Part shown: positions 8,364 to 53,717 of the stretch, piece by piece | Layout: every line of letters begins with the position of its first letter | Numbering within the stretch: the stretch's first letter is position 1 | Virus record (IMG/VR): IMGVR_UViG_3300037067_027643 | Location: 1 to 64,000 of that record | Direction: 5' to 3' (one strand) | DNA length: 64,000 nt | DNA from: a virus | Lineage: Duplodnaviria > Caudoviricetes | Program-made: the position numbers and the translations under genes | The notes under the pieces: model-generated | Told to the model about the DNA's origin: nothing | Databases searched by the model: none | What the model saw: only the letters and a program-made list of their open reading frames with translations

Positions 8364-8968
8364 TTATTTTTAAATTACAAAGTTTTAATTGTTTTTGTAA
8401 TTAATTTCTCTTATCATTACACCAACTAATCCAACGGCTAAAAATCTTGATACTTTAGTCCATTCTTGATAATGTTTTAACTTAATGTATTGTTTAACTT
8501 CAACAATATCATATAAATAGTTCTTATTCATTATTCAAGTTTAAACAACTTATATAATATCCCTCTATCAATATATTTAGCTAAATGAGCAGCAGTTATA
8601 TCTGGATATTTTTCTAATGTACCTTCTTGTAGACAAAATTCATAAGACTCTTTATCAAACTGAGATAGTTCATCATCTGTCATTTTATTCATCCATTCCT
8701 CATTAAAATCATTTCTAATGATTGGTTTTTTAATTAATTCCAATACTGATAGTGTATATTCCATAATTATTTGTCATTTATTTTATGTATTAACTCAGCT
8801 CCCAATGTTTTCAAACTTTCATTTAATTCTTTGGTTCTAGTTTAAAAGACTGTGGGTAGACTGTTTAATTTATTCATTGTTAATTAGTTATAATTATTAA
8901 AAATAATTGTTTGTATTTTAATTTTATTATATAATTTTGATATAATGTTATAATTTATTTATAAATTT

Positions 8969-23763: not shown

Positions 23764-25203
23764 TTATCTAATTATTTCTAAAATTGATATCAACAATGCA
23801 CTTGCACTTAATTCTTTAATTACTCTTAGATTACTTTGATATTCGTATTCTGCTAACTTTAATATAACTTCAGCACTTTTATTGTTACTATAATTATCAA
23901 CTTCATCATACAGTAATTGATACAACGGTGTAAAATCTCTTACCTGACTATCTGCTATCAACTGTCTTATTTCTGTAAGTGATTCTTTTGGTTTCTTTTT
24001 ACTATCTTTTAATATTTCTAATATTTTTAAAATATAGTTTCCTTCTATTAAATTTTGTTTATTTAATGTAAGTGTTCCATTAATAGTATTTTGTTGACAA
24101 GCATTTATTATTTTTCTAATATCTGGATAATTTGTATCTACTAGTACTTTTAAATCTTTTAAATCGTAGGTTACCTGTTCTGTATCCAATATATGTACAA
24201 TTCTTTTAGCAATATCTTTCTTACTAGGTGGAACTACATTAAATACTTGACATCTACTTTGAATTGCTGGACGAATTTTCTCAATGTAGTTCGCCGTCAA
24301 AATAAAGCGTGTACTTCCAGAATAAGTTTCCATTAGATTTCTAAGTAAATCTTGTCCTTGAAATGTTATACCATCACAATTAGAAGTTAATATCTGTTTA
24401 TTTGTAATATAAAAATTATGATTGTTTTCGACTGATAAATCAAATACAGGAATTTCTAAATGAGTTTTTACTATTTTTTCAATTTTTAATAATGATAATT
24501 TTCCTGTTGAATCGGTTGTTACTATTCGTCTATTATTACGAGTATCATTTATAATATCTGTTAATTTTAATTTATAGATATTTTTAAATTTAACTTCGGA
24601 AGAGTATTTAATTTTATTTGGTATCCAATTGTTTTTGTCAACATACACATACCATTTATGATCTTCTGTACATCTAACCATTTCTCCATTTTCAAAATGA
24701 ACTTGATAGATAGGTTTATTTCCCATCTTCCATAGATTAAATGGTTTCCATTCCTGTTCATTAGTATCAAAATTAAAACTCTTTACTAAATCACTATTTT
24801 CTTTTAAATAACGAATTTCGACTAGTTGTTCTACATCATCTCTTTTTATACAGACTAATGTGGTTTCTTCTAAACACTCATCTAAAAATACTACCTTCCA
24901 AGGTTTAAATCCTCCTGTTGTTGCAAATGATTTTACTTTAGTTCTAATAGTTTCGACATTATTTTCATCGGAAGCATTTATATATAAACAATCACATTCT
25001 ATTTCATTAGTTAATATATGACCTGCTGTCGTCTTACCAGTTCCAGGGGTAGAAAACAGCAAAATATGCGGAATGTCTTGATTAGTAACAAATGAACGAA
25101 ATTTATCTATCATTTGGTCATTACCAACATAATCATCAAACTTTCTAGGACGATATTTTTCGCACCAAATTGAATTTTCTTCTTCTTTATTTTCTATTTC
25201 CAT
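23764..25203 (-). CDS. Clamp loader ATPase (T4 gp44/RFC-like) containing a mini-intein
   Basis: WCEKYRP, PGTGKTT, NASD, VFLDE|C...N|CD, SRC. Confidence 0.92.
   Translation of the reverse strand: MEIENKEEENSIWCEKYRPRKFDDYVGNDQMIDKFRSFVTNQDIPHILLFSTPGTGKTTAGHILTNEIECDCLYINASDENNVETIRTKVKSFATTGGFKPWKVVFLDECLEETTLVCIKRDDVEQLVEIRYLKENSDLVKSFNFDTNEQEWKPFNLWKMGNKPIYQVHFENGEMVRCTEDHKWYVYVDKNNWIPNKIKYSSEVKFKNIYKLKLTDIINDTRNNRRIVTTDSTGKLSLLKIEKIVKTHLEIPVFDLSVENNHNFYITNKQILTSNCDGITFQGQDLLRNLMETYSGSTRFILTANYIEKIRPAIQSRCQVFNVVPPSKKDIAKRIVHILDTEQVTYDLKDLKVLVDTNYPDIRKIINACQQNTINGTLTLNKQNLIEGNYILKILEILKDSKKKPKESLTEIRQLIADSQVRDFTPLYQLLYDEVDNYSNNKSAEVILKLAEYEYQSNLRVIKELSASALLISILEIIR
24379..24876 (-). mobile_element. 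Contiguous 166-aa mini-intein in the Walker B of the clamp loader
   Basis: Starts CLEETTLV; block B CTEDHKW; block F VFDLSVENNHNFY; ends ILTSN|C; no endonuclease domain. Confidence 0.9.
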
Positions 25204-27426: not shown

Positions 27427-28344
27427 TTATCCAAAAAATTCATCAATTAGTTCACTATCACCTAAAACTCCCCATCCCAAAGCACTATAGAAATCATTGA
27501 GTTTGTTCTTTAACACACTATCAAAGTTTTTAAACCTATCCATGTAAACAGTTACTAAATCTACAATTTCTGGAGGATCTTCATTATCTCCTTTTAAAGC
27601 AATACTTTCTAATCCATATTTATTCTGTCTTAAATAAGTCCATTTAATCTTATCATTGTTTTGAATAGGTGATATATGTTTATCATATCCTAAATACACT
27701 AATAAATCATTATAACTTAATGCTGCTCTTACATGTGCTGGTGTTCCTTTTAAATAATTAAATGATTCACTATTTTGATAGTCATCCATGTTTTTAATTC
27801 CACTTGGAAACATTATATTAATAGCAGTAAAATCTTTTAATTTATCTTTTAGTGCAAATATTTGTGTATCTATATATTTTTTATTTGCTTTCTTTAATAT
27901 ATCTTTTAATAATTGTTTTGTAAAACTTCTAAATTCTGTTGGGAAGTTAGATCTAACAACATCAATTCCTTTTACTTCTATTTCACCTAGTTCATTTGTT
28001 TCTTTATCATAAATTGGAACTCCCTTTTTATTTATAACTAACAGTGCATATCTTTTCTTTGCTATCCAAAGTCCTGTTTGTGCAATGATTTCCTGTTTAA
28101 ATTTTATTCGATGAGTATCAACATAAAAGAATTTTTTTGTATAAGTATCAAACATTGAATTAACAAATCCTTGTATTTCTGTGGCGAGTGGTAAAATTAA
28201 TTCTACCATCTTATTATTATCTGTTATATCTAAATCAGGAAATCTATGTTTTACTAATGGTACAATTGAAAAAAAATTCGAATCTGTATCAATATAATTT
28301 ATGTAATCTATTTGTTTTCCTTTTTCAATCTTTTTTATTTTCAT
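27427..28344 (-). CDS. polB: Family B DNA polymerase, C-terminal half (motif C and thumb), with a 9-aa intein-C-like leader
   Basis: YIDTDS, KKRYAL, VKGIDVVRS, HVRAALSYN; begins MKIKKIEKG. Confidence 0.92.
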   Translation of the reverse strand: MKIKKIEKGKQIDYINYIDTDSNFFSIVPLVKHRFPDLDITDNNKMVELILPLATEIQGFVNSMFDTYTKKFFYVDTHRIKFKQEIIAQTGLWIAKKRYALLVINKKGVPIYDKETNELGEIEVKGIDVVRSNFPTEFRSFTKQLLKDILKKANKKYIDTQIFALKDKLKDFTAINIMFPSGIKNMDDYQNSESFNYLKGTPAHVRAALSYNDLLVYLGYDKHISPIQNNDKIKWTYLRQNKYGLESIALKGDNEDPPEIVDLVTVYMDRFKNFDSVLKNKLNDFYSALGWGVLGDSELIDEFFG

Positions 28345-29041
28345 ATAATTCTATTATTTTTTGATTTAATAATTTTTTATACATGTATTCGGTTAAATGA
28401 TATTTTTTTCTAAATGAAATTATAGTATCATAAATTTGTCCATCTCTATTATCAATAATTGGCTTTGCTTGTGTTTTTGCTTGTTTATTAAAATCTGATA
28501 TTTTCTTCCTTCTTAATGCTTCATTTTCTACTGTTGTTTTTCTACATTTAGCAGATTCACTCATCTTTTGTATTGTATCATCGGAATAAATATTAGTTTT
28601 TCCTTTATTCCATGGTATTTGTCCAATATGCGCATCACTTAGTTGTTTGCAACGTTCTGGACTATATTTAATATGCCAACATGGACTTTTTTCTCCTTTA
28701 GATCTTTCCGAGCACATTTTTTTATATTCTTCCGTATGTGTTTTACCTGACCAATATGCATTTTCATCATGTCGACAAGAACCACCTTTTAATATATTAT
28801 ATCCATTTGGTGCTTTTGTATTTAATTCCTTAATCCAAAATATTTCTCGAATATTTAATTCTTCTTTTGTATTACACTCTTCTATAATTTCTTTTTTAAA
28901 ATTTTCTTTGCCATATTTTTTAATAGCTAACCTTATTAATTTTCCACTACCCCAATAACATTTAAATCTAATTCCAACAGATTTTGTTTGCCCAATATAG
29001 ATTTTACCATTAATTAAATTTGTTATTTTATAAATTACCAT
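28325..29041 (-). mobile_element. Free-standing GIY-YIG homing endonuclease with NUMOD3-like repeats, splitting polB
   Basis: VIYKITNLINGKIYIGQT, YWGSG, REIFWI, GYNI; HTEEYKK.SE and PWNKGK repeats. Confidence 0.9.
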
Positions 29042-31020
29042 TATAATTCAATTATATCATCTGATTCTTGTAGATTTTTAACATATATATTTAAAGATTG
29101 ATTATCTCTAATAACTCCTATTTCATCGTTACCATTTAATTTTAATATTTCTCCATTTTCCAATATAATTTCATATATATTTCCAAGTTCATTTGTAAAA
29201 AAATAATTAGCTGATTTTTGTGCAAATTGTACAATCTGCTGTCCGCAAATAGTTACACTTGTGGCGTTATCAAGATCATAAAATCTAAATGAATCTAATC
29301 CTAATACACCATAAAATATATTTAATAAAATCTTTTGAACTAATTGTCTCAAACTATAAAAATCATATAATTGATCATTTCCCTCTTTACCATATTTATT
29401 TGCTAAATCTTGTGATATAACTCTCTCATCAAACCATTTAGATAAAATAGTTGGTATGATTCCTCTTATATCAGTTCTATACATTACTCCACTTGCGGCT
29501 AATGAATATTTATTTTCAATAATCATTTCTTTAATCTTACTAACTGACATTTTAATAATATCTCCTTGATAATATACATTATAAATATATTCATTATCTT
29601 TTTGGAATACATCCATATTATATTCCAATATTTTTCCAATCTTCGTTTCGGGAGAAATATTTAATGTCATAATAATATTGGGATACATTGAAGTGGCATC
29701 TAAATCTATTAACCAATCATATAATCCTGGTATAGGTTCTTTTACAAACGCACCTTCAAAATGAAATCCAACTTCATAAGAAGTTAATATGCTTACATCA
29801 AGAGGATTTTTTAATGAGAATTTATTTCCTTTGTATAATACATATTCAATATCATAAAATTTACTTTTACTCTTTTTAAATCTAAGTATACCGCTCTTAG
29901 GAACATCTTCCTGTATATTTTCTTTACAAATAATTTCAGTACATCCAATATCATGATTTCTACTTAGTTTTATTTGTTTCCATGTCTTCTTGTTTGTAAC
30001 AATTTTATTATTATTTTTTGTAAATGTTAAACAAGCCCCGTCTACAATTCTACTGGATGTAAATATATCTTCGTATGGAATGTGAGCTTTGTGAGCAACA
30101 CCAATTGCTAAATTAATAAATGTATTTTTTTTATCAATTTCCACTATTAAAACAACATCATTAATATTATATTTACAATATCCAACAATATCATTTTTAT
30201 AAAAAGCATCTAAATCACCTTCAAAAGTCATCTTACCATACCCTAATTCTAATCGAGATATAAAATCTAGTTTATACATTGGCTGTTCATTCTGAGTATA
30301 ATTTTTATACAATAACATATAATCTAAATGAACTACACCATAAATCATATATTCTCTTCTCATAGTTGACCAGGTAACTATTCCGATCGGACTTAATCTA
30401 CTAGCAATAGCTTTACCTACTACTTTACATGAACGATTATATAAGTAAGGAACGTCAAAACGCGCTGAATTCCAACCTGTTATTAGAGTAACACCTAATT
30501 GCTCATATCTACTATAAAATTTAAGTAATAAATCTCTTTCACTATTACATGAAACTATTTCTACTTCATTACCTTTATCATCTGCGATAAATCCATTTTC
30601 TAATTTTCCTTCTACATCTAATATAAAAGCACTATAACTATTAGTTGGTTTAAAATAATATGATATTGCTGTAATCTCTTGTTCTGCTAAATCTGCTAAT
30701 GGAAATCCTTCATCTGATTTTACTTCTATATCAAAAAAGAATTCTCGATGTCCTGTAGCTACTTCATCACTAGTATGATATAAATCTATAAGTGTACGCA
30801 TCTCTGGATTAACATCACTTTCATACATTAAACCATTTGCTATATCACTTTCACTCCATCCTGATACTCGTTTTACTCTTTGATTGTCAATAGTAGTATA
30901 AGTTCCCTTTGGATCTAATTTATATCCATACCTTTTATAAGGAAAATTATCATATCCAGCTTTGTCATCCCATAAATGGATTAAGTTTGTTTCTCTTTGG
31001 TAATTTATACAATAATACAT
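29041..31020 (-). CDS. polB: Family B DNA polymerase, N-terminal half (3'-5' exonuclease, motifs A and B), with a 46-aa Hint-like tail
   Basis: FFDIE, GWNSARFDVPY, YNINDV, DLDATSMYP, QKILLNIFYG. Confidence 0.93.
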   Translation of the reverse strand: MYYCINYQRETNLIHLWDDKAGYDNFPYKRYGYKLDPKGTYTTIDNQRVKRVSGWSESDIANGLMYESDVNPEMRTLIDLYHTSDEVATGHREFFFDIEVKSDEGFPLADLAEQEITAISYYFKPTNSYSAFILDVEGKLENGFIADDKGNEVEIVSCNSERDLLLKFYSRYEQLGVTLITGWNSARFDVPYLYNRSCKVVGKAIASRLSPIGIVTWSTMRREYMIYGVVHLDYMLLYKNYTQNEQPMYKLDFISRLELGYGKMTFEGDLDAFYKNDIVGYCKYNINDVVLIVEIDKKNTFINLAIGVAHKAHIPYEDIFTSSRIVDGACLTFTKNNNKIVTNKKTWKQIKLSRNHDIGCTEIICKENIQEDVPKSGILRFKKSKSKFYDIEYVLYKGNKFSLKNPLDVSILTSYEVGFHFEGAFVKEPIPGLYDWLIDLDATSMYPNIIMTLNISPETKIGKILEYNMDVFQKDNEYIYNVYYQGDIIKMSVSKIKEMIIENKYSLAASGVMYRTDIRGIIPTILSKWFDERVISQDLANKYGKEGNDQLYDFYSLRQLVQKILLNIFYGVLGLDSFRFYDLDNATSVTICGQQIVQFAQKSANYFFTNELGNIYEIILENGEILKLNGNDEIGVIRDNQSLNIYVKNLQESDDIIEL

Positions 31021-31091: not shown

Positions 31092-32759
31092 CTACTCTAA
31101 CAAACTTTCGTTTGCATTATTATTATATTTGTTATTCTTTTCAAAATAATCATCCAAAACCTTTCTAATTGATTCTTTACCTAATCGTGGTTTTGGTATG
31201 AACCAATTAGTCGTTTTATCAAGTTTTAAAAATGACTGAGATAGAACATTTATCTCTTTGAATTGTTTTATATTTTTACTTGCATTAAAATCGGCATTTT
31301 CTTCGTGACCACATTCCAAACACTTAAAATGCTCTTGAGTCTTTCTATTGTTTCTATCAACATAACCACAACGCGAACAACGTTGTGATGTATAATATGA
31401 TGGAACAATAGTTAACTGTATGTTTCGATTTCTACACTGATTAATAAGAATGTTTTTCATACTTACTAAATGAAGAATTCTGATTAATCTTGAATATTTT
31501 ATATTATAAAATTCTTCACTTCTACACCAAGATTTATCTCCAAGAACTAATCCTTCACAAACGATATGATTATATCCAGATTTTATTGTTAATTTAATTA
31601 AGTCACTAACATTCAAATTTTGTTCTGCTATTAAACGTCTATTCCAAGTTTGTTTTCTAGCAATTAATTTATATTTTTGCTTTATTTGTTTTTCTGTTAA
31701 ATCTTTATCAATTGTCTCATACATAAGTTTAGATTTTTTATCTAATTTCAATTGAGTTTTAATATAATTCTTAATTAAATTTCTATTAAAATCAACTGTC
31801 TTATCGTTTGAAAGTCTAAATAAATTATGTTTTAAGTTGGTATCTACTCCGGCTATATTGTTACAATCAGAAATAGTTTCTCTATTTCCTTTTTTATGTA
31901 ATACTATTTTTATTTTATTTTTAACAAATTGTATTGTATAAGATGCTTGTTCTTTATTATAATTATCTAAGTTTCCGTGATATTTTTTACTATATTTAAT
32001 TGGAATGTAAATTCTACCACATTTATTAATATGTCTAAAACCACTTAAAACAATATAATGAGTTAATATCGATTTATTATTTTTATTCTTAATTATTATA
32101 TCTAAATGAGCATTTACTCCATTATAAGTAAGTTCTTTAAACAAACAAGGTTTAGAGAATAGTTCTTTAATTAGTCTTGTTTTTCTATCATTTGCTAATT
32201 TTAAAATTCTGTCTCCAAATTTATCTAAATAATAAAGAATACTTTTATAAAATTCAATTTGTTCTAAACTTTTAATTGTATTAACATTATCAATTTCTTT
32301 AATTAAATAATTAACAGTTGTTTCATTGTAATATTTAGCTAAATATGAAATAACTTTGGTTAAGGGAGATGATTTTAATGATATATGAAATATTTTAATA
32401 TCACCCTTATTATGTTTCTTAGTAGTTATTTTATAATATTTAAATGACAATGGTTTTGATTGAATTTTAAATATAATTTTTTTATTTAATTCTTGAAACT
32501 TATTTTGATAAGCTGTATATACATCAGTTAATGCTGGCTGAATTTCTCTCCCAACTAACCCATCTATTTGAGTATTAAATTGAATCTGAAAATCAAATTT
32601 AGATATATTTTGAAATTTAATTGGATTATCACATATTATTTGACTTAATTCATTCTTAAAATTTCTAATCTTAACAGCCTTATCATGTAAATGATTATAC
32701 TTAATACTGTTTAAATCAGTAGAATAAAATGAAATTGAATATGTTGATTCCTGTAACAT
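31092..32759 (-). mobile_element. tnpB: TnpB/Cas12f-like RNA-guided nuclease, no adjacent tnpA
   Basis: RuvC-I GVDTN, RuvC-II IVCEGL, YTSQRCSRCG...FKCLECG Zn finger, RuvC-III NADFNASKNI. Confidence 0.85.
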
Positions 32760-40927: not shown

Positions 40928-42649
40928 TTATCCGCATTTGGACATTCCGCACGCTGGGCATTTCTGGCAACTCTCACTAAATACCATTAATTCTCCACAA
41001 TCTGGACATTTATTTTTACTCTTTATACCATCCTTTATAAATTTCTTAATGGTGCGCTCAACACCTGTTTTCCAAGTGTTTATACCATCTTCTTCAAATT
41101 TAAGATTACCTATTAACTCATATACACAAACTAATGGCATTCCTTGTCTAAGTACACCAGATAAAAGTCTAGCATAATTATAATATTGTTTGTCAAATGT
41201 TCTATTTAATCCTTCGTGTGTACATTTAAACCCATCACTATCAACATATTGAAAATCATATCTACTTATACCATTTTCTTTATTTCTGATAATAAATCCC
41301 TTTTCTATTTTTTGAGGAATATTAAAGGATTCTGATTTTCCAGTAAACAATTCGTATGGTTTATTATTTAATAATCCTATAACACTAATCCATTTTTCAC
41401 TATTACTTGTAAATCGAATAATTTCTGCGGGTAATATTTTAGGTCTTTTTGGTGCATGTGTTTCCCAATCGTTATTGATATTAGTTGCATTTTTACTATT
41501 ATCAATTAATATACCATCTCTACTTCCTTCTCTATATATTGTAAATCCTTTACATCCTTGTTTCCATGCTTCTAAATATATTGTTGATATTTCTTGTTCT
41601 GTTACATTATTAGGTAAATTACATGTAGAACTAATACTTTGTTGAATATATTGTTGAATTATTCCTTGTATTTTACATCTATTTATCCAATTAATTTCAC
41701 TCGCTGTTGATTTATAGTAAGGTGATACAGTTATTAATTTATCAAATTCTGTTTTATCTAATTTACTTAATTCTAACGATGATTCTTGTTCTGTTATATT
41801 TTTATATATACTATACCAAATAATAAATTTAGAATGGACTACATTATATTCTTCAAAACTATCACCTTGTTTATCTGTAAATGCTACTTTACTATTTTTA
41901 TCATTTGGATTTACTTTTTTACGTCTTGTATAATATATCATGAATGTAGGTTCAATTCCGGATGTTGTCTTAGTTAATAATGAAATTGATCCTGTTGGTG
42001 CCAATGCTGTTTGTGCTACATTTCTTCTTCCGAATTTTTTATATTTATCTATATAACTTTTATTTAATTTAGGTAACATCAATTGTATAAAATCATTTTT
42101 CGATTCTATATTGTAATCAAATCCTACGAATGAGCCTCTTTCTTCTGCTAAATCTATATCACTTTCTAATGAAGCCTTAGCAAATGAATTCATTATAGTA
42201 TTTTTAATAAATTCTATTGATTCTTCTGAACTATATTGTAAATTCATAGCTGCTAAAGTATCTCCTAATCCTGTATATCCTAATCCTGTTCTTCTACTAT
42301 TTAATGTTGTTTGTTTAATTTTATTCCATAATTCAATTTCTGTTCTCTTTATTTCTATCGGTTCTGGATCAATTTCTATTTTTGATAATATATTATTTAT
42401 TTTATCTATTTCCAAATCTACCATGTCGTCCATTATTCGCTGTCCATATTTTACATGTTGTTCAAATAAATCTATATTAAATGTTGAATTTTTTGTAAAT
42501 GGATTCACTACATAACTATACAGATTAAGCGACATAAGCCTGCAAGTATCTTGTGCCATATAGATTTCTCCACAATCCACATTCAAAATTGATTTATTAA
42601 AATAATTTTCTATTTTATCTTCCGTCTTTTTTATTTTTGTTATAATCAT
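40928..42649 (-). CDS. nrdJ: Class II ribonucleotide reductase, C-terminal half, preceded by a 25-aa intein C-fragment
   Basis: ...ILNVD|CGEI...CRL.SLNL, RRTGLG, APTGSIS, SGIEP, KG.TIYR, C-terminal CxxC pairs. Confidence 0.9.
   Translation of the reverse strand: MIITKIKKTEDKIENYFNKSILNVDCGEIYMAQDTCRLMSLNLYSYVVNPFTKNSTFNIDLFEQHVKYGQRIMDDMVDLEIDKINNILSKIEIDPEPIEIKRTEIELWNKIKQTTLNSRRTGLGYTGLGDTLAAMNLQYSSEESIEFIKNTIMNSFAKASLESDIDLAEERGSFVGFDYNIESKNDFIQLMLPKLNKSYIDKYKKFGRRNVAQTALAPTGSISLLTKTTSGIEPTFMIYYTRRKKVNPNDKNSKVAFTDKQGDSFEEYNVVHSKFIIWYSIYKNITEQESSLELSKLDKTEFDKLITVSPYYKSTASEINWINRCKIQGIIQQYIQQSISSTCNLPNNVTEQEISTIYLEAWKQGCKGFTIYREGSRDGILIDNSKNATNINNDWETHAPKRPKILPAEIIRFTSNSEKWISVIGLLNNKPYELFTGKSESFNIPQKIEKGFIIRNKENGISRYDFQYVDSDGFKCTHEGLNRTFDKQYYNYARLLSGVLRQGMPLVCVYELIGNLKFEEDGINTWKTGVERTIKKFIKDGIKSKNKCPDCGELMVFSESCQKCPACGMSKCG
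42575..42649 (-). mobile_element. Split-intein C-fragment ending in Asp
   Basis: MIITKIKKTEDKIENYFNKSILNVD followed by the catalytic Cys of (NP)CGE. Confidence 0.7.
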
Positions 42650-43874
42650 TTAATTCTTTCTTAAATTGTTCAAAATTATTAAAATATTTATTTATTGTTT
42701 GTATATTCAATCCAAAATTTAATGGTATTAATTTATTTTCTTTAAGATATTTAATAACATTATTAATATTTTCTAAATCAATATTACCATTATATTTATT
42801 AATACCATTGAATATTTTTATTTTATATCCATTAATTGATATATTATTTTTTAAATTATATTCTAATGTACATTTACCTGAACAAGTCATTTTTTCGGAA
42901 CTTGTTCTTTTTTTAAAAATATTTGTACATATTGCACATTTGCATTCTATAATCGGATCATTTAAATCTTTTTCTTGTCTTATTTTTTCGTATTTTTCTT
43001 TTTGACGTTTACTTATATCAGCCGCCATTTGTGGATTATTTTTAAATGCCTCCTTTCTGGATTTACTTAGTTTTAATGTATATTCTGGGTTTTCACATCT
43101 TTCTATTGCTTTTTGCCTTATTTTTTCTATGGTAGATTCTGACATAACAGCACCAAATCTTGGATTATTTTCTCCCCTCATATCACATTCTATAAAAGCA
43201 TCTTTCTTCCATTCTTTGCATTCCAATTTTATATCTTTGTTTTGTTTTAAAATTAAATTAATATCATATATCAATTCATATTCAATTTTAATTGATTCAA
43301 AATATTTTTTAAATAATTCATATTTATCATCCAAATTTTTATTATTACTTTTAACTTCAATTACTTTACACAAAATATTATTTTTATACATAAAAAAATC
43401 TGGTTTATATGATATATCACCCAAATAAAATATTTTATCTTCCATTTCTATTCTATAATCATTATAATATTTATATAAATATTTTAAAATAATAAACTCA
43501 CATTGACTTCGACAGTAATATTTTTTATCATTAATTATAACATAACCAGAATATCCTCGACTAAAATTTTTTGTTTGATGTTTATGTTGAACAGTTCTTC
43601 TATTAGTATGCTTATAAGATGATTCTATAAAATTATTAGCAAATATTTTTTTATTTTCTTCGGCTTCTAATTGTGTACAATTTTTCCGTAAAATCCAATA
43701 TGCAATAGATACTTTACTATTTGACGAATTAATAAATTGTACAATATCTATACATAATTTTTTATTTAATTCTGACTTATCTTTAATATTAAAATAAATC
43801 AAGGTTTTTTCTAAAAATTTATCAAAACCTTGTCTAATTTTTAATTTACTTAATTTTTCTACTGTTTGTTTCAT
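42615..43874 (-). mobile_element. Free-standing PD-(D/E)XK-type homing endonuclease splitting nrdJ
   Basis: RSQCE, YKPDFF, IEVKS; GENNPRFG..MSEST.EK NUMOD3-like segment; CAIC..CSGKC. Confidence 0.75.
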
Positions 43875-43940
43875 ATATTAATATCTCCTTACCATGTATT
43901 TAAATAAATAGTAAAAAAATATTTTTTATAAAACAACATG

Positions 43941-44486
43941 TTAAATTATTTCATCTCCTTCGACTAATTTATATGCAAATTTTTGACCTAATTTTGTATT
44001 AACAATATCAAAATATTTTAATTTTAAATTATCATTTAAAATAATATCATCTTCCACAATAATTTCTTTTCTATTTAAAATACTAAAAAAATTATAATTG
44101 GGTATAGCTGTTAAATCATATACATCCTCTACTAAATTTGTTTTAAAAATATCAATTACCTTAAGTAATTTATTATTAACACCTAATATAGAAATTTCTT
44201 TATTATTCTGTAAATCAATATCACAAATTAATATTTGATTAAAATCTTTATCATATAATTTATGTTTAGAATTTACTAAAATATATTCTCCATTATCAAA
44301 TGATATTTTATAAATTTCGTCTTTATGATTTGTTATGCCAACCCAATCTAATTCAGATGTAAATAATATACCATTTTTATCTTGTGTAATTATTTTAATA
44401 TCACTATATTTATCTTTCCACTTTTCTAAATTATTAATTTTAATCCAACCAATATTTGTTAATACTAATGTATCACCAACAACGCA
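43941..44486 (-). mobile_element. Split-intein N-fragment (blocks A, B and F plus a 46-aa tail)
   Basis: CVVGDTLVLT, IYKISFDNG...NSKH, VYDLTAIPNYNFF, then a tail ending KLVEGDEII. Confidence 0.8.
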
Positions 44487-45371
44487 TGGGTTTGTGGTTA
44501 TCCCTTTGTATTGTGGATATTCTTCACTAATCCCTTTATCTAAGTTGTCAATAAATAGAATTCCTGGTTCTGCATTCTTCCAATTGTTATATATCAACTT
44601 ATTCCAAATATCTTTAGGATTGATTTTTTTCTTAAATTTTGCTTCTCCTGTTATTGGAAATTGTTGTTCAAATTCTTTATTGTTAATAATACAATCTAAA
44701 AATTCATTTGTTATTTTAATTGAAATATTTGCTCCGGTAATTTTTCCTTCTTCAAATTTAGCATTTATAAAGTCCTCTAAATCAGGGTGCTTACAATGCA
44801 AAGACAGCAACAAAGCTCCTCTTCTTCCATCTTGTGCTACTTCTCTAGTTGAATTACTATATCTTTCCATAAATGGAACTATTCCTGTAGATGTTAATGC
44901 GCTATTTTTAACAGGACTACCTTTTGGTCTAATATGAGATAAGTCATGACCAACACCACCTCTTCTTTTCATCAACTGAACCTGTTCTTCGTCTGTTTTT
45001 ATAATTCCTCCGTAGCTATCGCACTCATTCCCTACGACGAAGCAATTGCTAATCGAGGTAACTTGTAAATCGTTTCCGATTCCTGCCATTGCACTTCCAC
45101 CTGGAATAATATATTTAAAATTCTTTAACAAATCGTATATTTCTTCTTCACTTAGTGGATTTGGATACTTTTGTTCTATTTTTGATAATTCTTCGGCTAT
45201 TCTTTTATGCATGTCATCTGGACATTTTTCATAAATATTTCCTTCACTATCCTTTAATGCATACTTATTGATCCAAACATTTGTGGCTAGAGTGTCATTG
45301 TCAAAATATTTTAATGTTTCATTATAAACTTCTTCTCTATTAAATTTAATCATCATTTCTTTATTCTCCAA
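43941..45371 (-). CDS. nrdJ: Class II ribonucleotide reductase, N-terminal half, ending in a 181-aa intein N-fragment
   Basis: VWINKYALKD, SNCFV, RRGGVG, QDGRRGA, EPGILF, TNP|C. Confidence 0.9.
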   Translation of the reverse strand: MENKEMMIKFNREEVYNETLKYFDNDTLATNVWINKYALKDSEGNIYEKCPDDMHKRIAEELSKIEQKYPNPLSEEEIYDLLKNFKYIIPGGSAMAGIGNDLQVTSISNCFVVGNECDSYGGIIKTDEEQVQLMKRRGGVGHDLSHIRPKGSPVKNSALTSTGIVPFMERYSNSTREVAQDGRRGALLLSLHCKHPDLEDFINAKFEEGKITGANISIKITNEFLDCIINNKEFEQQFPITGEAKFKKKINPKDIWNKLIYNNWKNAEPGILFIDNLDKGISEEYPQYKGITTNPCVVGDTLVLTNIGWIKINNLEKWKDKYSDIKIITQDKNGILFTSELDWVGITNHKDEIYKISFDNGEYILVNSKHKLYDKDFNQILICDIDLQNNKEISILGVNNKLLKVIDIFKTNLVEDVYDLTAIPNYNFFSILNRKEIIVEDDIILNDNLKLKYFDIVNTKLGQKFAYKLVEGDEII

Positions 45372-51496: not shown

Positions 51497-52645
51497 TTAT
51501 AAATCAAGAAGTATTTTTAAACCATCATATTTTTTATCAATAATAAATAAAAAATCATATCCAAGTTTTATGCTGCCTATGCGTTTAGCTAAATTTTTAT
51601 TCAAATATGTATTATAATAATATACACTTTTAACTTCTATAATCAAATTATATTTTGGTAAATAAAAATCTGAGTGATATACTCTATTTTTATTATTATG
51701 AATATATCTTAAGCTTGGACCATTTTCTACAACTATATTATATTTTTCACAAAATTCTAAAAAATCGTATTCATAACTTCCTTGATATGATAATGTGGTA
51801 TCTTTATACAATTTAGCTTTAAAAGAATTCATTTGCATTTTATGAAACATCTCTGGATTTTGAGTATTGTTTTCATAGCCACAATGTTCTTTTTTAGTTT
51901 GTCTAGTTTTATTTTTAACTATTTCTGATTTTGTAGCATGATCAAATCCATATCTATCAATATATGTAAGTGTTCTTTTTTCTTTACATGAATCTAATTG
52001 CATATTATGTTCTACACCAAAATTTTCTCTATAAAAATCTTTAATCTTTTCTTTTATTATGTCTGAAGCAAATACATTTTCGGTTCCATAAAGTTTAACA
52101 TTAGTTATTTTTGTTTTTTCTTTAAATTCTGGAGTTTGCATTAACATTTCGTATCCATATTTTTCTTTATTTGTCTTTTTAATTTTTTTTGATGTTGATT
52201 TTGAACCTAAACCCATTCCACCATACAATTCATTTTGAGTTTGTTTAGTCTTTTCTTTTATCTCTTCATTCTGTTGACAATGCGGAACTCCAAAATGTTT
52301 AATACTAGTTGCTTTCATTTTATCTTGTACCCACTCTAATGAAGTAGTTGATTCTACACCATATCTTTCCATACAAGTATTTTTAACCTTTTCTCTACTA
52401 CATTTTGATGAGCAACTATAATATCCTCCATTTTTAATATTTTTTAAATATGCTTTATAACTTATTATTTTTTCATTACCACAAACATCACATTTAACTC
52501 TTACTTTTGTATAACTACCAGGATGTAAATCTGTAATCTTACATATAAATTTATCATTAAATCCAGTAAATGTATAACCTAAATTAATATAATATTTACA
52601 CATATTTGGATTAAACCGTATTTCAACAAATTCATCTAACAACAT
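51497..52645 (-). mobile_element. Free-standing putative homing endonuclease (Zn ribbon, KxTxxExYG repeats, PD-(D/E)XK domain)
   Basis: CDVCG, about 8 'K.K.T..E.YG' repeats, YHSDFYLP...IEVKS; start taken at ATG 52645. Confidence 0.7.
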
Positions 52646-52649
52646 AATA

Positions 52650-53717
52650 CTAACAATAAAATGGAAACCATTCAACTTTACATCTAGAAATACTATCTTT
52701 TACAATATGTAAATCAATAATACAAAACCCAACATGAGCAGCTAATCGTTTTCCTTGCATCCAATTTGTTTGACGTTGCATGCTTCCGGCTGATACACAA
52801 TGAATATTTCGTTCAAATATATAAGCAAATTTATGGCAATGCCCCAAACCTAAAAAATGGGGTTTTGTACCTCCAGTCAAGCTTTCTACAACTTTTTGTA
52901 TTCGATAACTTAGAGCGTAGCTCGATGCATCTTCACCATGCCATAAACGTATTTTAATATCTTTTTTTAATATAATATCCCCCACATCATGTCCTAAAAA
53001 TGTAGCTCCTATTCGTTCACAAACATCTTTAACAAACAGAGCACCTGCCGACTTTATGAACCAGCGATCATGGTTCCCATCTATCATATATAATGGAGCT
53101 GGACAATCTTTTAATAATTTTACAGTATGTTCTTTTTGTTTATCGTAGCCTAAATCACATAATTCGTAGATTTGGCCGGGTCTTTGACTCATACCCTCTG
53201 CAAGATCTCCAGTATGTCCAACAAATTCAACTCCTTCTTTTCTAAATTGGTCAAATGCTTGATAGATAAAATCATCATGAGTGTACATAGAACCAATATG
53301 AGTATCTCCAAATAATCCAAATTTAATATGATCACCATCAAAATGAATTTCTGGTACTTTTATTATCTGTTGTAATAAACTAGAACCATTTGCTATTAGT
53401 CTTAGTTCCTCTGGAGAATAACGTTCTTTTATTTTTGTAATTATTTTATCTTCTTTTTGTTGTTTAATTTCTTTGGGAGAACTACACTCATTATTTATTT
53501 TTTCTTTTTTAGTCTTTGGTTCAAAATTGGTTATAAAATTATCTACTAATTCTAAACTCCAAAAATCACCACATGTTTTAATTTTTCTACAGATTGCACG
53601 TTCTATGTTTTTTGTTTTAATTCCGTCCCATTTTATTTCTTTGAAATTGTTATATTCTTTGATATATTCGCCTGTTTCTCCATCGTAGCGATAGATTTTA
53701 CTCTGTTTATTTACCAT
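52650..53717 (-). CDS. Calcineurin-like metallophosphoesterase with NUMOD1-like N-terminus
   Basis: GDTH, GDL, GNHD, HG, GHCH. Confidence 0.8.
   Translation of the reverse strand: MVNKQSKIYRYDGETGEYIKEYNNFKEIKWDGIKTKNIERAICRKIKTCGDFWSLELVDNFITNFEPKTKKEKINNECSSPKEIKQQKEDKIITKIKERYSPEELRLIANGSSLLQQIIKVPEIHFDGDHIKFGLFGDTHIGSMYTHDDFIYQAFDQFRKEGVEFVGHTGDLAEGMSQRPGQIYELCDLGYDKQKEHTVKLLKDCPAPLYMIDGNHDRWFIKSAGALFVKDVCERIGATFLGHDVGDIILKKDIKIRLWHGEDASSYALSYRIQKVVESLTGGTKPHFLGLGHCHKFAYIFERNIHCVSAGSMQRQTNWMQGKRLAAHVGFCIIDLHIVKDSISRCKVEWFPFYC

Follow-up and report, generated by a model that had tools for sequence, protein, structure and literature searches.

Genes fractured by a split intein together with a free-standing homing endonuclease gene were described by Dassa et al. 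(2009; PMC2677866) as NrdA-1 to NrdA-7, NrdJ-1 and NrdJ-2, gp41-1 and IMPDH-1. A locus of this kind is present in the stretch of DNA analysed here, positions 1 to 64,000 of IMG/VR virus record IMGVR_UViG_3300037067_027643 (64,000 nucleotides; the window hereafter), where the nrdJ gene for ribonucleotide reductase (RNR) is interrupted by an intein in two pieces, an N-terminal fragment (IntN) and a C-terminal one (IntC). The window is AT-rich (~25% GC) and belongs to a 285.7-kb virus record, that of a giant phage, with T4-like replication genes. As in the fractured genes described previously, extein-IntN, a short spacer with a hairpin, an endonuclease gene and IntC-extein follow one another on one strand of DNA of phage origin; as at the NrdA site, the host is an RNR and the insertion lies immediately before the thiyl-radical Cys; and, as in NrdJ-1, NrdA-2 and IMPDH-1, IntN is acidic and IntC basic. 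The described inteins, however, have an IntN of 88-105 and an IntC of 33-54 residues and are broken at the canonical site (one terminase intein has a short IntN), whereas here the fragments are of 181 and 25 residues, the break falls after block F within an extra module of ~70 residues, the terminal residue is Asp, and the endonuclease is neither GIY-YIG nor of their Vsr-like type.

Two natural classes of split, at the endonuclease site and at S1 (IntN of 15-25 residues), are recognised in a paper and a review of 2025, in which S11 (IntC of 6 residues) counts as engineered (PMC11923092, PMC11766414); according to a passage in PMC6801210, nested endonuclease domains all share one conserved insertion site. 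An earlier note on this DNA had called a break between blocks F and G atypical, which is in agreement with that literature. The engineered Ssp GyrB S11, Ssp DnaX S11 and Ter DnaE3 S11 inteins (PMC11766414) and the short-IntC forms of Npu and Ssp DnaE (PMC2664965) resemble the nrdJ intein in being broken between F and G, with a near-complete Hint domain and a very short C-piece that holds the last strand and the terminal residue. They are nevertheless man-made, have an IntC of 6-15 residues, lack any additional element for docking and are described as slow and of low affinity, whereas the NrdJ split is natural and conserved and a 19-residue N-terminal extension of block G is predicted to dock on a 47-residue tail of IntN. 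The natural atypical inteins AceL-TerL, GOS-TerL and VidaL, split at S1 (PMC11923092, PMC10189870), are likewise of phage or metagenomic origin, broken away from the endonuclease site and with one very short fragment, but they are the mirror image of the present case, their short piece being IntN (15-37 residues) and not IntC. In the literature searched, the coverage of which is incomplete, neither a natural block F/G split nor an intein with a folded module between F and G was found.

It is likely, in our judgement, that the NrdJ intein is naturally split, with the break between blocks F and G in the manner of the engineered S11 splits, and that it carries a built-in clasp: the extra mini-domain that holds the break probably clips the 25-residue second piece to the first.

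The split intein of nrdJ

Direct reading of the sequence renders three successive minus-strand open reading frames (ORFs), nrdJ-N, a middle ORF of 419 codons and nrdJ-C (Table 1). The Pfam RNR barrel profile is covered from position 1 to 212 by nrdJ-N and from 212 to 523 by nrdJ-C, so that the two are exact complements; extein-IntN and IntC-extein are thus separate ORFs that jointly make up the whole host protein, with a free-standing gene between them. A stop codon lies in frame immediately upstream of the ATG of IntC, which limits this fragment to a maximum of 25 residues. The start of the intein at NP|CVVGD, the presence of blocks A, B and F in the N-fragment, and an IntC ending in SILNVD|CGEI after the intervening gene had been given in the earlier note with exact coordinates; the tail that follows block F and ends in a stop codon is there as well, with 47 residues in place of the 46 it had counted. 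NP|CGE is the RNR active-site loop that bears the thiyl-radical cysteine. The layout is, with good probability, that of a fractured phage nrdJ gene with a class-1-type intein at the classic RNR site, before the thiyl-radical Cys of NPCGE.

IntN runs uninterrupted across the canonical endonuclease-domain and split site and includes block F. The typical S0 break, between block B/N4 and block F and leaving an IntN of ~100 and an IntC of ~35-50 residues, is therefore not the one found here. A Hint fold extends from the first to the last residue of the intein, and the nucleophiles at both junctions, NP|CVVGD and NVD|CGEI, are invariant across the intein family. In block B the His is invariant and the Thr is replaced by Asn (NSKH) in nearly all family members; inteins lacking the block B Thr exist. 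The family ends in Val-Asp, not in the canonical His-Asn, Asp and Gln being documented functional stand-ins for the terminal Asn and the penultimate His being dispensable in some inteins (PMC4031507). Conservation across diverged NrdJ exteins extends to Cys1, the His of block B, the Asp of block F, PNYNFF, the terminal VD and Cys+1. From this conservation and from the position inside the NPCGE loop we infer that the intein splices.

The fit of the two fragments was modelled for the window's own pair (IntN with 6 extein residues, IntC with 45) together with three controls. The complex scored 0.89 and the best of the three controls 0.01, a mark that 58 out of 80 solved complexes and 2 out of 110 mismatched pairs attained for comparison with the 0.89 found here; contact agreement between runs was at least 80% and the pLDDT (predicted local distance difference test) of the partner at least 53. 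A specific association of the two intein fragments is predicted in this way, and in this structure prediction, a check proposed in the earlier note, tail and leader dock. IntC would contribute to the Hint domain only the last strand, block G, paired with the second strand of block F, as expected for an S11-type break: residues S20-V24 pair with the NFFSI strand of IntN in the canonical block F/G manner (expected error 0.5-0.7 A), and Y16/F17 pack against the block A region. Besides the Hint core the models show ~65 extra residues. In the complex the tail contacts residues 1-10 of IntC, predicted to be buried in the tail sheet, and I2-K7 sits between the tail strands IILND and EGDEI (residues 154-158 and 182-186 of the modelled chain). 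We know of no solved counterpart of this clasp part.

The tail of the window has a net charge of -2 (family mean -6) and the first 12 leader residues are basic throughout the family, with charges from +1 to +5. Charge complementarity, the tree and the conservation of the tail together favour a docking role tied to the split state, and tail and leader plausibly act as a clasp. IntN is a Hint domain complete but for its last strand, and IntC provides this strand (SILNVD) together with the terminal Asp and Cys+1. IntC would use its basic first strand to zip into the acidic beta-sheet of the 47-residue tail, a capture step that would compensate for the very small Hint interface and set block G against the NFFSI strand, completing the active site. 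Trans-splicing would then proceed by an N-S shift at Cys1, transesterification to Cys+1 and cyclisation of the Asp, and ligation of ...TTNP to CGEI... would restore the enzyme. The endonuclease would be a selfish passenger, held down by a hairpin over its ribosome-binding site.

Table 1. Features of the nrdJ element and of the split PolB comparator locus, with their positions in the window.
Feature	Position	Strand	Remarks
nrdJ-N ORF	45371..43941	minus	476 aa from TTG 45371; likely ATG at 45356
nrdJ N-extein	44487..45371	minus	ends ...GITTNP; Pfam Ribonuc_red_lgN and Ribonuc_red_lgC, profile positions 1-212
IntN Hint core	44085..44486	minus	Cys1, block A, block B, block F
Cys1 codon of intein	44486-44484	minus	after ...TTNP, opens CVVGD
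Block A CVVGDTLVLTNIG	44486-44448	minus	in N-fragment
Block B NSKH	44285-44253	minus	in N-fragment
Block F VEDVYDLTAIPNYNFF	44132-44085	minus	in N-fragment
47-aa tail SILNRKEIIVEDDIILNDNLKLKYFDIVNTKLGQKFAYKLVEGDEII, SILNRKE...VEGDEII	43944..44084	minus	acidic; N-side of putative clasp
Stop codon ending nrdJ-N tail	43943-43941	minus	
5' untranslated region hairpin of middle gene	43861..43941	minus	RNA fold
Middle gene	43874..42615	minus	free-standing, 419 aa, putative homing endonuclease
25-aa IntC MIITKIKKTEDKIENYFNKSILNVD	42575..42649	minus	basic strand, IENYF, block G; C-terminal Asp, not Asn
Basic first strand of IntC MIITKIKKTEDK	42649-42614	minus	C-side of putative clasp
Block G KSILNVD	42595-42575	minus	in IntC, after IENYF
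nrdJ-C ORF	42649..40928	minus	573 aa
nrdJ C-extein	40928..42574	minus	Cys+1 (42574-42572) of NPCGE loop first; Pfam Ribonuc_red_lgC positions 212-523
PolB comparator locus	28309..29181	minus	separate from NrdJ element
PolB-N tail	29181-29044	minus	46 aa, added relative to contiguous PolBs
GIY-YIG gene in split PolB	29041-28325	minus	Pfam GIY-YIG E 5e-9
PolB-C 12-aa leader MKIKKIEKGKQI	28344-28309	minus	

Split and contiguous relatives

A search with the intein and its tail rendered 23 proteins with 46-62% identity and full coverage, tail included, and further loci of the family were collected by scanning viral and metagenome contigs for patterns, so that the tail is shared by at least 23 relatives and conserved in 22 or more split ones; among GenBank phages neither the intein protein nor 6 kb of the DNA had a match. 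The family bears an extra segment of 30-65 residues between blocks F and G, and in most relatives the break falls inside it. The tails of the 22 complete split members are of 47-51 residues and all stop at the same point, right after ...E.D[DE]I[IL], and the leaders are conserved up to ...SIL[NS]VD|C. The split site usually holds a free-standing endonuclease gene, and its content varies: L010 and L037 hold one orthologue of the middle gene of the window, L001 such an orthologue and a second ORF, the L007-type contigs a GIY-YIG gene, and L006 a 90-nt spacer with no gene. To this extent the unrelated endonuclease families of the earlier note are borne out, in that within the NrdJ intein family itself one split site holds a PD-(D/E)xK-like gene, a GIY-YIG gene, two genes or none.

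Several of these contigs show further peculiarities in the same gene. In L001 a group I intron (RF00028, 99.7 bits, E 1e-26) occupies 8560-8787, immediately after the ..VD|CG codons, so that a few hundred bases of this nrdJ accommodate the split intein, the two genes between its halves and an intron. The contigs L007, L008, L009, L041, L047 and L050 decode TGA as Trp and carry, after ...STLNVDCG (~7640-7690 in L007), five extra bases, TAGGA, which include a TAG stop; omission of exactly these bases in the L007-type contigs restores CGEILMSTGVC, and they may reflect a programmed hop or frameshift, or else mark a dead allele. Further downstream the same nrdJ holds another split intein, of canonical type, at 7616-8302 of L006 (IntC end ...HYYLLEDGTVSHN|S) and at 9561-10454 of L007 (IntC end ...HHYILGNGIISHN|T).

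Seven members of the family are contiguous inteins. In P0017, represented by two independent contigs, the whole tail is fused to a leader-like sequence (...ENDEIFEDTKITKIIKPNINNDYFSKSILNVD|C); P0023 and L043 have diverged versions of tail plus leader, and L048, L011, L012 and L046 progressively shorter ones. The distance from block F to block G in the fused forms is of 38-73 residues. From NFF to the terminal Asp there are 72-78 residues in the split forms and 38-39 in the shortest fused ones (L046 and L012), the corresponding distance to the terminal residue in canonical inteins being ~7. The linker of L046 keeps the first residues of the tail and the last ones of the leader and looks like an internal deletion. 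Since all seven contiguous inteins retain the segment, whole or shrunken, tail plus leader is a feature of the family and not a cassette confined to the presence of an endonuclease.

On an unrooted maximum likelihood tree of the Hint core alone, split and fused forms interleave, and at least four state changes are forced by well-supported pairs (P0022/P0023, P0024/L011, and L043 plus L046 with P0025/26). The module tracks the phylogeny of the core, as seen in the LYGYDE start common to L043, L046 and P0025/26. With the two forms interleaved over at least four supported changes, the module is therefore older than the family as sampled. When pairs of equal core identity are compared, the tails of two split forms are 0.44-0.48 identical and those of a split and a fused form 0.21-0.32; on these sequence comparisons the tail is conserved where the intein is split and decays where it is fused.

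Two derivations of the tail were considered and ruled out, each with an hhalign probability of 0.3%: that it is a diverged duplicate of the intein's own block B-N4 region, and that it is a decayed F2/G strand with the start of the C-extein, an idea prompted by a MAFFT misalignment. Isolated NrdJ tails and the fused module gave no Hint match in Pfam.

It can also be argued that the F-G segment is an ordinary domain of this family with another role, such as stability, regulation or contact with nucleic acid, that it is not a clasp, and that the break is incidental, lying where an endonuclease could land without killing splicing. Long versions are indeed kept by the fused P0017, P0023 and L043, AlphaFold2 (AF2) folds the segment confidently within the fused protein, and the split site is occupied by differing endonuclease families or by none; yet the ratio of tail to core identity is 0.85 among split forms and falls to 0.54 between split and fused ones, when the segment has not shrunk as in L046 and L012, and the complementary charges of the two sides and the predicted burial of the beginning of IntC in the tail sheet speak against it as well. 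We consider this explanation improbable.

Endonuclease genes and the split PolB gene

The product of the middle gene combines a PD-(D/E)xK-like core (RGYSGY...YKPDFF...IEVK) with NUMOD3-like repeats and, at the C-terminal end, a part rich in Cys. In L001, L010 and L037 the same site is occupied by orthologues of 41-43% identity, and P158, D159, E173 and K175, as well as the motifs RGYSGY, YKPD and E.K, are invariant in the four sequences. Pfam gave a weak NUMOD3 match only (E 0.027), and PHROGs and PDB sequence searches gave nothing. The AF2 model (pLDDT 73 overall) has an alpha/beta core with a pLDDT of ~80, for which Foldseek found nothing at E <= 0.001 and a weak list made up mostly of restriction-endonuclease-fold nucleases; the neighbours in the Atlas are NUMOD3, TnsA-like and DUF7487 clusters. 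The gene between the halves is nuclease-like, in line with the earlier note, but with a weak NUMOD3 match and a conserved PD...E.K it could be assigned to no class in these searches, and we regard it as a putative homing endonuclease of PD-(D/E)xK type, from an unnamed family. As in the relatives, its 3' end and the start of IntC overlap by 35 nt. The hairpin in its 5' untranslated region (-22.2 kcal/mol, z = -4.5, none of 200 shuffles folding as well) buries an AAGGAG ribosome-binding site (43890-43885) and has TATTTAAATA (43906-43897) in its loop, and the same design has been reported for the endonucleases of fractured genes (Dassa et al. 2009, PMC2677866). A second free-standing homing endonuclease gene of the window (51497-52675, minus strand; Pfam DUF7487, E 8e-53; PHROG 'homing endonuclease') is not lodged within a gene but has replication and recombination genes around it.

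The PolB gene of the window is also split. Contiguous PolBs read ...KELGNKDDYNVYIDTDS, to which the PolB of the window adds the tail and the leader given in Table 1, and P0036 is a contiguous PolB with a homologous insert. Positions 48-93 of Pfam Intein_splicing match two PolB tails (E 0.006 and 0.0013), hhalign of the PolB tails alone against the NrdJ Hint core gave P 5e-4 over 40 columns in the block B-N4 region, and the tail aligns without gaps to the true IntN ends of L117-L119 at ~41-44% identity, part of which is built in, these loci having been chosen through the pattern YEI.LEN. In block B the PolB piece has NGND where TxxH would be usual; it is without blocks A, F and G and has a nucleophile at neither junction, and therefore cannot splice. 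By its sequence, the PolB tail is what is left, catalytically dead, of the part of a split intein that runs from block B to the split site, and is separate from the NrdJ tail. The Aes123 PolB1-type split intein, in a T4-like PolB (PMC11923092; PDB 9hth), and the intein of L118 are the forms to the second half of whose IntN it aligns; the PolB piece of the window differs from them in the lack of blocks A, F and G and of a nucleophile, in NGND for TxxH, and in a position ~8 residues upstream.

NrdA-a/mobE/NrdA-b of Aeromonas phage Aeh1 offers a parallel, in that oppositely charged C- and N-terminal tails are needed for the assembly of an endonuclease-split gene product; Crona et al. (2011, PMC3045599) suggested that such tails could be what is left of a split intein that had degenerated. 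The PolB of the window fits this idea of a dead intein; unlike in Aeh1, where there is neither splicing nor any recognisable Hint residue, the NrdJ tails sit in a seemingly functional intein.

Other loci bear similar insertions. In L116 (2354-4057) the split of PolB has the same position and its tail is homologous, and the intervening ORF encodes a 103-aa Vsr/DUF559-like nuclease, not GIY-YIG; L118 (3400-5230) is a related-phage PolB with a true Ser1 split intein at YGD|TDS and a gene of 317 aa between the halves, its site lying ~8 residues downstream of the non-splicing insert of the window. Adjoining the split PolB is a 555-aa ORF (31092-32759, minus strand) with a C-terminal zinc-finger region that by eye is TnpB/IS605 OrfB-like. 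A clamp-loader-like ORF (RFC/gp44-type; 23764-25203, minus strand) contains a contiguous canonical mini-intein, VVFLDE|CLEE...NHNFYITNKQILTSN|CDG, with an ordinary short F-G turn and 43.3 bits on PF14890, above the cut-off. Outside the window, the same genome has Hint matches of 29 and 24.5 bits at 116533-116814 and 120258-120644 (G000:C1), in open frames of 1213 and 733 aa; with these two, the phage has at least four intein-related insertions.

The earlier note had aligned the NrdJ tail with the PolB tail and matched their leaders, and had proposed that the clasp and the endonuclease gene were inserted into the F-G loop of a formerly contiguous intein as a reusable gene-fracturing module common to both loci. 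Such a portable cassette (tail with stop, endonuclease gene, start with leader) is in our view unlikely. Both loci do break after an acidic ...L.E.D[DE]II and restart with a basic M.I.KIKK strand, and hhalign joins the last 13-18 columns of the two tails with P 0.0015-0.0024, but at a probability of just 12-17%. The pairwise similarity of the tails is at the level of chance (shuffle test score 31 vs 26.9 +/- 5.3, p 0.22), as is that of the leaders (p 0.12), with p 0.04 for tail and leader joined, and the two tail-plus-leader pairs are not taken as significantly similar. Within the 285.7-kb genome the NrdJ tail profile finds only itself, missing the PolB tail even at E <= 10, and the PolB/IntN profile misses the NrdJ tail at E <= 1. 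The search of wider sequence collections suggested in the earlier note turned out likewise: among 1.84 billion proteins the tail profile found 18 representatives, all of the NrdJ intein family except P0083, the sole candidate for a second host gene, on a contig too short to judge. P0083 (L120) is a 119-aa ORF with a Phage_phiTE_072 domain on a 512-bp contig, with a tail-like end (E 2.6e-5 with the NrdJ tail profile).

It may be added, on the side of a cassette, that the PolB insert, being ~8 residues upstream of the true split-intein site of L118, looks transposed rather than decayed in place, that tails arriving with an endonuclease were proposed by Crona et al. (PMC3045599), and that GIY-YIG genes occupy both the PolB split here and the NrdJ-intein split of L007. 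This last link was not upheld for the loci as a whole, however, the identity of 43% being confined to the catalytic domains and the DNA-binding parts being different. The fused relatives bear the module with no endonuclease gene, the module follows the phylogeny of the intein, and no member of the family loci collected has a plain F-G turn. Insertion into a formerly contiguous intein is not supported, in view of contiguous relatives that already carry the segment, nor is a module common to both loci, in view of tails with no significant profile similarity beyond L.E.D.II, the two observations that the earlier note itself had named beforehand as telling against its proposal. Either convergence or a last remaining trace of common descent may account for the L.E.D.II / M.I.KIKK junction that the two loci share. 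We give little credence to the extended version, in which the tails and leaders of NrdJ and PolB descend from the strands flanking the canonical split site of an earlier split intein and travelled with an endonuclease gene as a clasp cassette able to fracture any gene, serving as a non-splicing hold in PolB and, in NrdJ, where it landed inside another intein, giving rise to a new split-intein class.

Standing and meaning of the nrdJ split

Several points weigh against a splicing intein with a built-in clasp. Splicing and fragment binding are model-based, and the docking pass may partly be the model's memory of solved split inteins, especially for the Hint part, the IntC alignment being shallow as well (8 rows). 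Three residues are non-canonical (Asn for Thr in block B, penultimate Val for His, terminal Asp for Asn), so that the intein could be slow or conditional. The fused P0017 retains the full module, which is not, then, strictly tied to the split state; the pairs in the comparison of tail conservation are not phylogenetically independent; and hhalign found no profile similarity of the module to the Hint core or to the leader and extein.

It is very unlikely that the intein is catalytically dead and that the NrdJ pieces associate non-covalently, as Aeh1 NrdA-a and NrdA-b or the PolB of the window: the unusual block B Asn and terminal Val-Asp, and a non-splicing clasp in the same genome (PolB), would suit this explanation, but an RNR with 206 residues inserted amid its buried NPCGE active-site loop could hardly be active if they were not removed, splicing is possible for inteins that end in Asp (PMC4031507), and relatives at 46-62% identity show little or no variation in Cys1, the His of block B, the Asp of block F, the terminal Asp and Cys+1, whereas PolB lost blocks A, F and G.

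The nrdJ locus belongs to a known kind, the fractured gene with a split intein; what would be new is a natural S11-like split that lies within a family-specific clasp module and ends in Val-Asp. For the older suggestion that dead split inteins can serve as assembly tails where an endonuclease has split a gene, the PolB locus provides support at the level of sequence. In reviews up to 2025, splits before the last strand are known only as engineered, weakly associating forms, and are wanted since a short IntC can be made by peptide synthesis. The NrdJ family would be a natural solution to this problem, with an IntC of 25 residues whose extra strand docks on a dedicated tail, and as such a template for tools for C-terminal protein labelling. 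The family also provides a graded natural series, in which the same intein is found split around an endonuclease gene, split with nothing in between, fused, or fused and reduced, which makes the cycle of gain and loss in gene fracture directly testable.

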